Position numbers: made by a program. 44,448 nt of DNA. Origin: a virus (taxonomy: Duplodnaviria; Heunggongvirae; Uroviricota; Caudoviricetes). Numbering within the stretch: the first letter of the stretch is position 1; each line of letters starts with the position of its first letter. Positions 42,001 through 44,448 of this stretch are shown piece by piece. The stretch lies in the IMG/VR virus record IMGVR_UViG_2851949629_000004. One strand, written 5' to 3'.

Positions 42001-44448
42001 AGCGTAAACCGGAGAACTGGCAAGAAATACAGACCAGACTTTCCAGATCCTGATATTAAATCCTGCCCAAATAAATGGGCATCACAAAAGATTTACAGGT
42101 TTGCAGGAGTCATTGAGTAATATGCCTTAGATCAGATGTAAGCTGACACACCACTATGGCACAGAGTCAAACCTAATCTAACTACCTGCTCTGTGCCAAA
42201 AGAAGATACTACTAACATAAGTATAAAATAATCAACGGGACACAGCTCATCTGTACTACTCCACAAGCGGGATAAGTTTTTTACCTGTGTCTTCAAAGAA
42301 TGAAAACGAAGACCAGCGGTAAGTATATAAAAAAGCCACTTTGCCTGCATGTTCTTCGATAGCTTTTTTTAAATATGACTTGCGTTTACTGACTTCTGGA
42401 AATTTATCCGAAAAGATAACTATTGCTCTTGATGATAGTCCACCACCATTCCGCATAAAGAGAGTAAACTCACTCAATCTAAGCATATTGAAATTTGCAC
42501 AATTCGCTACATCATTATCAAACTTAGCAACTATACTTTTTATTTTGTCATACAGACTGACCATATCCCTAAAAATATTTTCATCTGCCAACTGAATATT
42601 TCTTTCATTCAACTCTGTTATATATTTATTATCATCCACTATTCCAATAGGATATCGAGCATTTAAAACTATATCTCGAGACGCAACTTTCAATAACTTC
42701 AGTTCGTCAACGGTTAATGGCAAACCTAAATCAACAGCCATACAATCAAGTTTATGCCCATAATTACAAAACTCATTTTCAATAGCTTTTTTTCTCGCAC
42801 CGAGATTCATTAGAAGAATCGCTGACTTTAACAACATTTCAAAAGCATACCCCAACATAAGTCTGCTAGTTTGATCAGTTGCCGATGCGATATCGATGTA
42901 TTCATGAACAATAGGAGATTTCTTACTTTCTGCCCGAAGCAATTTTTTGTTTCGCTCACCTTCACTTCTCAACAGCTTCGCAGATAAATACAGTTTTTTA
43001 GACTCTGTTAACCAAGCCTTTCGATCAAATATACCTTTCCCATTTTTCTGCGTGATTATCTCGCTCTGCATCAATAACTCCTATGTTATTAGAACCAAAC
43101 CTGCCACTAATCAATTGCAAATCTCGTCGTTGTTATTTTGACCAGACATTACATTGCTCCATTTGTAAAATACCACTTAACTAACTTGAATGAGAAATTG
43201 TAAGTATTCCGACAAAACAGACTATCAGTTGGGGTCTGAGCTAGCACAAGTAATGATCGATTCAACCCTCTCCCACCACGCCTGGTAGGCTTTACGCTGT
43301 TCTTCTAGATAATCGCTCTTGTCATAAACCTGCCAAACCCCTGGCAGTTTATGGCCGAGCATTATTTCTGCAATATGAGGGGCAGTAAGATCAGAAAAGT
43401 TTGTTCGTGCTGTTCGCCTCAAATCATGAAGAGACCAATGAGGGAATTGATACCCCAAACGCCGCCATGCGTACTGCATTAAATTGTAAGGCAGCGACTG
43501 CAATGATGTTCGACCAACGGGTTCCCTGCTTCCTTCCTTAGTAAAAAGCATATCGGAACCATTGTTCATAGAGATAGCGTTCTTTATAAGCTCCTCCACC
43601 GGTTCAATAATGGGCCTCTTTAGCGGTTCGCCTGTTATCTCCCCAGTCTTATGTCGTTCTGGTGGTACAGTCCATACCTTATTAATGAAATCAAAATCGT
43701 CCACCCTGGCAGTAATTAGCTCTGAACTACGGCAGCCAAAATGCAGCAATAGCTTAATGAAGGCCCGGTATTTAGGAACCATTCGAGAACCATCGATCGC
43801 AGCATAAAGGATTTTAATTTCATCATGTGTCAGAAACCGTTTCTTCTGACCTTTACGGATATCCATATCTTTACCCGTGATATCCGACAGCGGGCGAGTT
43901 TCAATGAGCTTTCTCTTATACGCCCAGACATGGGCCTGCTTTGCGTTAATTAGCAATCGGTCTGCTATTGCTGGAGTCTTAGTGCTAAGAGGCTCCAGGA
44001 CTTCTAACCAATCATGCAATGTAGCTGCATCGTGAGGGATATTCCCGATTTTAGAGAACAGGTGCAGCTCAAACGAGCGGAGTATCTGTTCAGAACCTTT
44101 TTTATTTTTTACACAATATGCTTCATACCAGGCACGGATCACAGACTCTACCGTCATGGCTTCAGTAGCTTTTCGTTTTTCAGCCTGCTTGACCAATCGT
44201 GGATTACGGTTTGACTCAAGTTCACCACGGAGACGGATAACTTCTTCTCTGGCCTCTTTTAATCCAGTTGCCGGGTAAGTTCCGATATCAAGACGCTCAC
44301 CTTTCCCTGCCCATTGATAACGATATTGGAACACTACGCGACCTTTCGGTGATACTCTGACAGACAGACCATCACGATCGGATTTAACCAAAACCTTATC
44401 ACGTTCCTTTCCAACGACTGAACGCAACCACGCATCAGACAGCGCCAT

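Follow-up and report, generated by a model that had tools for sequence, protein, structure and literature searches.

The locus and its base composition

The window analysed here, i.e., the whole 44,448-nucleotide stretch of DNA of IMG/VR virus record IMGVR_UViG_2851949629_000004 (Caudoviricetes), contains, between a tyrosine integrase gene (int) and an excisionase gene (xis), a single open reading frame (ORF) for a protein of 271 amino acids (aa). This ORF, its cassette and the family of its protein are the subject of the present work. The whole window is 100% identical to Escherichia coli strain 214-4 (NZ_CP025840), and the region forms the left end of a lambdoid prophage whose insertion site adjoins yjjG.

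The ORF starts with an ATG codon, and a TTG codon located one codon upstream provides an alternative start that would yield a protein of 272 aa. A preliminary description of this DNA, made from the sequence, had proposed a 271-aa ORF located between the integrase gene and an AlpA/excisionase-like gene. The ORF is real. The same coding sequence (CDS) is annotated in RefSeq (WP_052939666.1, E. coli 214-4) under the label "hypothetical protein", and its two neighbors are recognized by Pfam (Phage_integrase) and by PHROGs (phrog_1553), respectively. The coordinates of all these features are compiled in Table 1.

Regarding base composition, the guanine plus cytosine content (GC) of the CDS is 0.353 and that of its third codon positions (GC3) 0.305, vs. 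a mean of 0.515 for the window. Among sliding windows of 816 bp (mean 0.516, standard deviation 0.050), the CDS has a z value of -3.26, and all eight lowest-GC 816-bp windows of the 44 kb fall in 42051-43266. The AT-rich character of the ORF, already pointed out in the preliminary description, is then well founded; by contrast, the "GC-rich" backbone holds in relative terms only, with ordinary, E. coli-like values of ~0.46-0.57.

Table 1. Position of the ORF, its predicted protein domains and conserved residues, and the surrounding features in the window.
Feature	Position	Strand	Remarks
CDS of the 271-aa protein	42256..43071	-	Stop codon 42256-42258
N-terminal helical domain, divergent HEPN fold (predicted), residues ~17-186	42514..43023	-	AlphaFold2 model
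E78	42838-42840	-	Conserved, N-terminal domain
K82	42826-42828	-	Conserved, N-terminal domain
C102	42766-42768	-	Lineage-specific, N-terminal domain
H106	42754-42756	-	Conserved, N-terminal domain
R139-Y140-P141	42649-42657	-	Conserved, N-terminal domain
C-terminal beta3-alpha2-beta2 domain, residues 187-271	42259..42513	-	AlphaFold2 model; no recognizable structural relative
R207	42451-42453	-	Conserved, C-terminal domain
G209-G210	42442-42447	-	Conserved, C-terminal domain
W253	42313-42315	-	Conserved, C-terminal domain
Shine-Dalgarno sequence AGGAG	43078..43082	-	6 nt upstream of ATG
Cassette-specific upstream region	43072..43213	-	Presumably with the gene's own promoter; unlike other cargo variants
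Candidate extended -10 TGgTATTTT	43175-43167	-	With TTCTCA at 43196-43191
Candidate promoter element TACAAT	43202-43197	-	Promoter candidate
Exchangeable cargo cassette	42180..43217		Homology ends at ~42179-42201 (xis side) and resumes at ~43213-43217 (int side)
Perfect 9-bp inverted repeat, GGCACAGAG - 22-nt loop - CTCTGTGCC	42158..42197		Between the convergent 3' ends of xis and the ORF
Tyrosine integrase gene (int)	43225..44448	-	Upstream of the ORF, same strand; Pfam Phage_integrase, E = 8e-18
Excisionase gene (xis)	41926..42120	+	Convergent with the ORF; phrog_1553, E = 6e-35

An exchangeable cassette in the int-xis slot

The interval between int and xis is truly a slot for exchangeable cassettes, and the acquisition of the ORF was independent of the backbone, as the preliminary description had suggested. 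When the xis-side and int-side flanks were joined and searched in 5426 complete E. coli genomes, both flanks were found within reach of each other in 114 genomes. Conservation of the ORF in this slot was looked for and not found: it is present in only 19 of these 114 genomes, with all 19 copies being full length and chromosomal. The remaining slots hold, between the same flanks, at least two unrelated cargoes: (i) a pair of genes coding for proteins of 160 and 150 aa, for instance in E. coli O145:H28 (L002:3550-4032 and L002:4074-4526); and (ii) a gene for a 239-aa protein (WP_000040218, phrog_8440; L022:1238-1957), present in E. coli TK3046 and others. These alternative cargoes are equally AT-rich (~30% GC) and have no match in Pfam or PADLOC; the 160/150-aa pair has none in PHROGs either.

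The 160-aa and 150-aa genes could form a two-gene system such as, for instance, a toxin-antitoxin (TA) pair. The 239-aa cargo contains the string VRHNFAAHKG, which corresponds to a canonical HEPN-style R-x5-H, so that, at the level of motifs only, each allele may encode a HEPN-type effector of its own. Kinship between the ORF family and this cargo, which bears an Rx4-5H-like string, was rejected, as neither BLASTP nor hhalign gave any similarity.

According to blastn against the two variants (L002, L022), homology breaks 8-12 bp past the int stop codon and 60-80 bp past the xis stop codon. The swapped unit is then about 1 kb long and comprises the ORF, ~140 bp of its own upstream DNA and ~55 bp downstream. 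At the xis-side breakpoint there is a perfect inverted repeat (Table 1). No T-run follows this repeat on either strand and the terminator scan did not call it; on the cargo strand, a T-run lies upstream of it and, in consequence, the repeat is not a canonical terminator. It could act as a recombination or boundary element. On the other hand, the 79% nucleotide homology to the Enterobacter orthologs (42257-43071 vs. L004 and L005, 6001-6815) extends from the ATG to the stop codon, with unrelated flanks on both sides; the gene seems to move or to be retained as a CDS-sized unit.

Since the same int and xis genes flank at least three mutually exclusive AT-rich cargoes without known function, the slot constitutes a natural experiment and, at the same time, a cheap source of candidate defence genes missed by Pfam, PADLOC and NCBIfam.

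Expression signals

The ORF has its own AGGAG Shine-Dalgarno (SD) sequence, in agreement with the preliminary description. The promoter proposed together with it, i.e., TTGATT (43114-43109) and TAATAA (43091-43086) with a spacer of 17 nt, does exist as a string but is weak, with 7 of 12 consensus positions and a -10 element devoid of the conserved final T. Furthermore, TAATAA ends 3 nt before the SD sequence, so that a transcript started there would be without it: this promoter and the SD sequence are mutually incompatible. Within the cassette-specific upstream region, the candidate extended -10 (Table 1) is better placed than TTGATT/TAATAA. In any case, every promoter candidate scores at most 8/12. 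No Rfam family was found in 41600-43400.

Protein family, conservation and selection

As anticipated in the preliminary description, the 271-aa protein belongs to no recognized family: it has no significant match in Pfam, NCBIfam, PHROGs, PADLOC or the PDB sequences, and no housekeeping, structural or regulatory family was found with confident homology to it. Likewise, nothing significant was obtained when 62 family members were compared with Pfam and PADLOC, and no PADLOC model is common to more than two of them (PADLOC-DB v2.0, from 2023, predates post-2023 systems). The PDB sequences were also searched with the protein, two family profiles and the consensus of the N-terminal domain (N-domain), with no match; weak hits to peptide deformylase and VC0179 were dismissed as chance. 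The family itself is therefore new, i.e., absent from Pfam, NCBIfam, PHROGs and PADLOC, and described in no paper found.

A word-seeded search yielded 31 clusters at 47-99% identity, all of them from Enterobacterales (Klebsiella, Enterobacter, Serratia, Yersinia, Pantoea, Pectobacterium, Citrobacter, Raoultella, Lonsdalea) and all annotated as "hypothetical". An exhaustive profile search of 1.84 billion representatives returned 185 proteins (counted as representatives at 50% identity) with E < 1e-3, 114 of them with E < 1e-10. Nearly all of the 185 are 260-300 aa long, align end to end and share the same two-domain layout. The family extends over the Proteobacteria, with named members including Shewanella, Pseudomonas and Rhodobacteraceae/Paracoccaceae. 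A search for related loci with the close alignment gave two genome loci and five viral loci. A 769-aa protein (P0119) with 13 "matches" to the C-terminal domain (C-domain) was discarded as spurious, being a low-complexity tandem-repeat protein.

In an alignment of 62 sequences with 21-64% identity to the query, five residues (W20, K82, H106, Y140 and P141) are invariant and another 14 (G13, E23, R35, S69, L71, L72, Y75, E78, L81, R139, R207, G209, G210 and W253) are conserved in at least 90% of the sequences; E78 and R139 are each present in 61 of the 62 members. The gene is under purifying selection, with a ratio of nonsynonymous to synonymous substitution rates (dN/dS) of 0.14 vs. the Enterobacter orthologs, at dS ~0.96. 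It is AT-rich in every host genus (31-37% GC).

Predicted fold

An AlphaFold2 monomer model, built from the close alignment, was obtained with a pLDDT of 85.6 and a pTM of 0.84. It consists of a helical N-domain (residues ~17-186) and a beta-rich C-domain (residues ~190-268). The predicted N-domain agrees with the definition of the HEPN fold, that is to say, a bundle of four helices in up-down arrangement, in which helices 2 and 3 are often separated by an insert. Its nearest structural neighbors are 1wol, 1ufb, sacsin and KNTase-type domains, and the HepT/MntA entries 7ae2, 5yep and 8xdj are also among the matches. At the sequence level, the best Pfam match of the family N-domain consensus is PF05168 (HEPN), with 17.1 bits, E = 0.0063 and profile positions 26-112 of 117 covered; this match does not reach the gathering threshold of PF05168 (22 bits), and the window protein itself has no match to it. 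Among the 62 members taken singly, one matches PF05168 (E = 0.0028) and one matches AbiU2. The fold evidence and the weak sequence evidence converge on the same clade (HEPN-T, PF05168).

The helical segment LGYAFEMLLKSA...YGHKL, singled out in the preliminary description for a loose HEPN likeness, turned out to be the most conserved part of the family and contains E78, K82 and H106; the likeness itself has become, in the model, a divergent HEPN fold.

Two independent associations with a canonical Rx4H-type segment were observed, neither of them significant: (i) a metagenomic homolog of 491 aa (P0050) has an additional C-terminal region (~285-491) which contains CRNKHVAH and gives a weak AbiU2 match (E = 0.019); and (ii) the upstream neighbor of the Klebsiella homolog, a 232-aa protein (L014:5301-5999), contains NRHAFAHG, with its stop at 5999 and the start of the homolog at 6001. 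Kinship between the ORF family and this 232-aa neighbor was rejected on account of the absence of BLASTP or hhalign similarity.

Putative active site and the C102 allele

In the model, R139 closes a helix and is followed by the invariant Y-P, and both E78 and K82 are placed in the long second helix. An R-x4-6 segment precedes H106 in 13 of the 62 members; the window protein has neither this arrangement nor the canonical one after position 139. Asp or Glu is present at R139 +5 to +8 in 41 of the 62, and the window protein reads RYPIGIVDD.

In the HEPN-T clade (PF05168; 2hsb, 1wwp) and AbiV, the HEPN motif is located where helix 3 ends, and three further characteristics have been described (Anantharaman et al., 2013; PMC3710099): (i) the His of the motif is typically missing, with Asp instead in several cases; (ii) a second, strongly conserved N-terminal His could pair with the basic residue of the motif as an alternative active site; and (iii) a conserved acidic residue lies nearby in helix 2. 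Judging from its conserved positions, the family fits this alternative-site pattern, with R139, H106, E78 and the Asp or Glu after R139 as the putative counterparts.

A different explanation, which we regard as unlikely, is that of a non-catalytic HEPN-fold protein that binds RNA or a nucleotide and works for the prophage as a regulator or a superinfection-exclusion factor, as proposed for MtlR, human sacsin and nucleotidyltransferase substrate-binding domains. Such a protein would account for the absence of Rx4-6H in 62 of 62 members and for the tolerance of R102C by the E. coli allele; besides, the structural neighbors 1wol, 1ufb, sacsin and KNTase-type domains include HEPN domains without proven nuclease activity, and motif-less HEPN domains have been discussed as possibly acting in a non-catalytic manner (Anantharaman et al., 2013; PMC3710099). 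But members of only 21-29% identity have one His in common without exception, and an Arg, a Glu and a Lys nearly so, a pattern which marks a catalytic or ligand pocket and not a scaffold; these residues match the alternative active site that has been put forward for HEPN-T and AbiV, and the gene is found in defence islands, not in metabolic operons.

Four residues ahead of H106 lies position 102, which is occupied by Lys or Arg in 55 of the 62 members; among close relatives, 25 of 26 have Arg, Lys or His there. In every copy of the E. coli lineage, and in that lineage alone, position 102 is Cys (TGT vs. CGC in Enterobacter). The E. coli allele may be fully active, altered or attenuated. The last case leads to an explanation to which a rather low probability is given, namely that the family is functional in defence and the E. 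coli allele, with R102C near the catalytic His, is decaying or attenuated and carried passively. The uniqueness of C102 fits this idea, and so do the rarity of the gene (19 of 5426 genomes) and the nonsense copy described below; against it, the 19 genomic copies are all full length, the E. coli lineage has accumulated differences at up to six residues while keeping an intact ORF, with a within-lineage dN/dS of 0.22, and position 102 is variable (also Gln, Glu, Phe and His) and lies outside the E78/H106/R139 triad.

One metagenomic viral copy, in IMG/VR record IMGVR_UViG_2529292985_000030 (L009:1379-2194), carries a W20* nonsense mutation at the invariant Trp, plus S131F, which looks like an occasional inactivation in the wild.

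Genomic neighborhoods

Twelve independent loci were sampled, of which 10 adjoin defence or mobile genes. The gene is found (i) in E. coli, in the int-xis slot of the prophage; (ii) in K. pneumoniae, after an integrase gene and within prophage genes; (iii) in Enterobacter, between genes for a protein with an Mrr_cat restriction-endonuclease domain and a resolvase, with a DEAD/ResIII helicase gene adjoining; (iv) in Serratia, next to a resolvase gene; (v) in Pantoea, after DUF8209/DUF1493 genes; (vi) in a metagenome locus, directly after BREX PglX-PglZ-BrxL; (vii) in another metagenome locus, beside genes for an RVT_1 reverse transcriptase (RT), a KAP NTPase and an HTH_3 protein; (viii) in a locus with IS21 and MazEF adjoining and JetD 5 kb away; (ix) next to a gene for an AbiJ_NTD4-containing protein; (x) among GmrSD_N, Schlafen/AlbA_2 and Mrr_cat_2 genes; and (xi) by itself, flanked by the genes for a TonB receptor and an alanine racemase. 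Two contigs are too short to be informative.

No neighbor or partner gene is conserved across the 12 loci, in which neither an MNT/NTP_transf domain nor an antitoxin-like partner was found. The small ORFs located upstream of the Pantoea, Serratia and Klebsiella homologs are mutually unrelated and were, in consequence, rejected as a conserved partner or antitoxin. This bears on the possibility that the protein is the toxin of a TA or addiction module which stabilizes the prophage, in which case the role of antitoxin would fall to an antisense RNA, to a small ORF that overlaps the gene, or to some factor with its gene at another place. HEPN proteins are indeed classic TA toxins (HepT/MntA, whose entries 7ae2, 5yep and 8xdj are among the matches), small ORFs of 93 aa (Pantoea), 66 aa (Serratia) and 232 aa (Klebsiella) do lie directly upstream in some relatives, and MazEF and HTH_3 genes are near the homolog in two loci. 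This possibility is nevertheless judged quite improbable: besides the absence of MNT or any other conserved neighbor, the ~1-kb E. coli cassette holds this ORF alone; homology to the Enterobacter copies runs from ATG to stop, hence no flanking element travels along; the Rfam scan detected no RNA family around the ORF; and the precedent of HepS (see below) indicates that, even with no antitoxin, a HEPN protein working solo can be safe.

The ORF follows int immediately on the same strand and could be co-transcribed with it, which also brings to mind a role in the service of the phage, e.g., a counter-defence factor or a host-takeover ribonuclease (RNase) acting in lytic growth. Phages do carry HEPN-like and other RNases, and no strong independent promoter was found for the ORF. 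Yet most family members are located outside prophages, in chromosomal defence islands (BREX, RT/KAP, GmrSD/Schlafen), a tblastn search of 50,697 deposited phage genomes gave no match, and the cassette brings its own 140-bp upstream region. The chances of a phage-serving role are thus very slim.

Proposed function

The interpretation proposed here, to which about even odds are assigned, is that the ORF is a horizontally acquired "moron" cassette that encodes a solo HEPN-fold abortive-infection effector from a family not yet catalogued. This interpretation is based on the fold, the conserved residues, the purifying selection, the lack of a partner gene, the exchange of the cassette and the defence or mobile neighborhoods; the anti-phage role is suggested by the fold and the genomic context.

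According to this interpretation, the protein would be made in the lysogen and, because no antitoxin gene accompanies the ORF, it would be harmless at rest. The N-domain would be a divergent HEPN RNase with an alternative site formed by R139, H106 and E78 (with K82). Upon infection by another phage, the C-domain would sense a phage product or position an RNA substrate; activity at the HEPN site, which probably spans a dimer, would then be switched on, and cleavage of tRNA, rRNA or mRNA would abort the infection. HEPN RNases in general are defined as metal-independent endoribonucleases whose active site is shared between the two halves of a dimer. We infer in this manner RNase activity, oligomerization, sensing or recognition by the C-domain, and an anti-phage phenotype.

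Several points weigh against this proposal: (i) the Foldseek comparison with the whole PDB returns nothing below E = 0.09, and the sequence-level links to HEPN all stay under the curated thresholds; (ii) none of the 62 members has [RK]139-x4-6-H, and the acidic residue after R139 is conserved in 66% of them only; (iii) the alternative site is a published prediction, not a demonstrated mechanism for the clade, and the assignment of E78, H106 and R139 to one site, made from sequence conservation, is putative; (iv) the Cys at position 102 sets the E. coli lineage apart and may make its allele attenuated or altered; (v) one locus has housekeeping neighbors only, the gene standing alone between those for a TonB receptor and an alanine racemase; (vi) a promoter consensus scan gives promoter-like sites not above shuffled sequence (4 found, 4.8 expected), and the terminator scan found no intrinsic terminator; (vii) the best match of the window protein in PADLOC-DB v2.0 has E = 0.0012 over 40 residues (REase_II); and (viii) neither WP_052939666 nor WP_016570101 was found in the searched literature full texts or in the DefensePredictor supplements.

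A more ambitious version, tentative and with the balance tilted against it, would make the protein the first known representative of a single-gene anti-phage system, new and distributed over the Proteobacteria, in which an alternative-site HEPN nuclease is controlled by the structurally novel C-domain; this C-domain (with an invariant R-x-G-G hairpin and Trp) would be a new phage-sensor or RNA-recognition domain, and the slot of the yjjG prophage a hotspot of at least three alleles, each an undescribed defence gene. Single-gene defence by HEPN proteins is already known from AbiV, AbiD/F, HepS and several DefensePredictor systems; what is new is the (putative) alternative-site HEPN domain fused to a fold-orphan C-domain, as well as the three-allele int-xis hotspot with uncharacterized cargoes.

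If the proposed function is correct, the solo-HEPN principle would be extended to a clade with an alternative active site which was predicted in 2013 and has hardly been tested. The compact and confidently predicted C-domain, without structural relative, is in turn a candidate trigger-sensing or substrate-recognition module. If, on the contrary, the protein is inactive or non-defensive, the finding is reduced to an ordinary prophage moron.

Comparison with known HEPN systems

The direct sensing of phage structural proteins by solo HEPN abortive-infection proteins was demonstrated just recently, with HepS in 2026. HepS ("HEPN Solo"; Gifsy-1 STM14_3211, PDB 9OIK) is a partner-less prophage protein that is constitutively expressed and non-toxic (PMC13043305). 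It forms an inactive tetramer until the tail-tip protein J activates it allosterically, whereupon it cuts the anticodon loops of tRNA; the trigger is captured by terminal strands (Nature 2026; PMC13043305). Like HepS, the ORF is a single HEPN-fold accessory gene of a lambdoid prophage, without a partner or antitoxin gene, and HepS offers, by analogy, the best functional model: a latent oligomer, activation by a phage protein and tRNA cleavage. Nonetheless, the ORF protein is not a member of the HepS family by the criteria compared (size, domains and motif, with HepS taken by its description): HEPN Solo proteins have a single domain, at most 250 aa and the canonical R100-x4-H105, and HepS itself has ~205 aa; in contrast, the ORF protein has 271 aa, two domains and no Rx4-6H. 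In addition, the ORF protein has no sequence match in the PDB, and HepS is absent among the fold matches listed; the gene of HepS is not contained in the Gifsy-1 (LT2) record. Finally, the trigger site of HepS corresponds to terminal strands, whereas in the ORF protein a discrete, highly conserved C-domain would be available for a trigger or RNA role.

With regard to the HEPN-T proteins (PF05168; AF0298/2hsb, TTHA0636/1wwp, ST0689/1wol and TT1696/1ufb), apart from the match under the gathering score, the ORF differs in that (i) it has no adjacent MNT nucleotidyltransferase gene; (ii) its domain is larger (~170 vs. ~120-130 aa), has extra helices and is fused to a novel 85-aa C-terminal domain; and (iii) the family occurs on mobile elements of Proteobacteria, in contrast to HEPN-T, found mostly in archaea and thermophiles. 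AbiV (Lactococcus; PDB 9bj5) is a single-protein HEPN abortive-infection system from Firmicutes, of ~150-200 aa and without a C-terminal domain; its structural score is much weaker than those of the HEPN-T structures, and it has no sequence similarity to the ORF protein. As for HepT/MntA (DUF86; 7ae2, 5yep, 8xdj), this system is characterized by an Rx4HxY motif and by an MNT antitoxin, obligatory and encoded upstream, which AMPylates the toxin; the ORF has neither.

Other observations in the prophage

An IS66-family element (ISEc43-like), with ORFs for a 145-aa protein, a 116-aa TnpB and a 537-aa transposase, is inserted in a DUF551 gene just upstream of xis (window 39171-41599, minus strand, and 41651-41926); the DUF551 CDS is partial in RefSeq, with its N-terminus missing. 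For the 18 further genomes with this cargo, the match does not start until base 78 of the query and, in consequence, the insertion looks specific to strain 214-4.

The prophage has a second AT-rich patch (window 27601-28400, GC 0.365-0.395) with a 148-aa plus-strand ORF (27781-28227) oriented against the genes around it, and this may represent a further moron. Positions 3601-4800 show an unusually high GC (0.61) and a strongly negative AT skew (-0.39 to -0.45); they lie inside a 1134-aa minus-strand ORF (1614-5018), probably coding for a tail-fibre-type protein of biased or repetitive composition. Lastly, a 133-aa ORF at 38766-39167 is labelled "valyl-tRNA synthetase" in RefSeq (WP_129547066.1), almost certainly a misannotation, as the protein is far too short and its gene is located among yfdP/Q/R-like phage genes.

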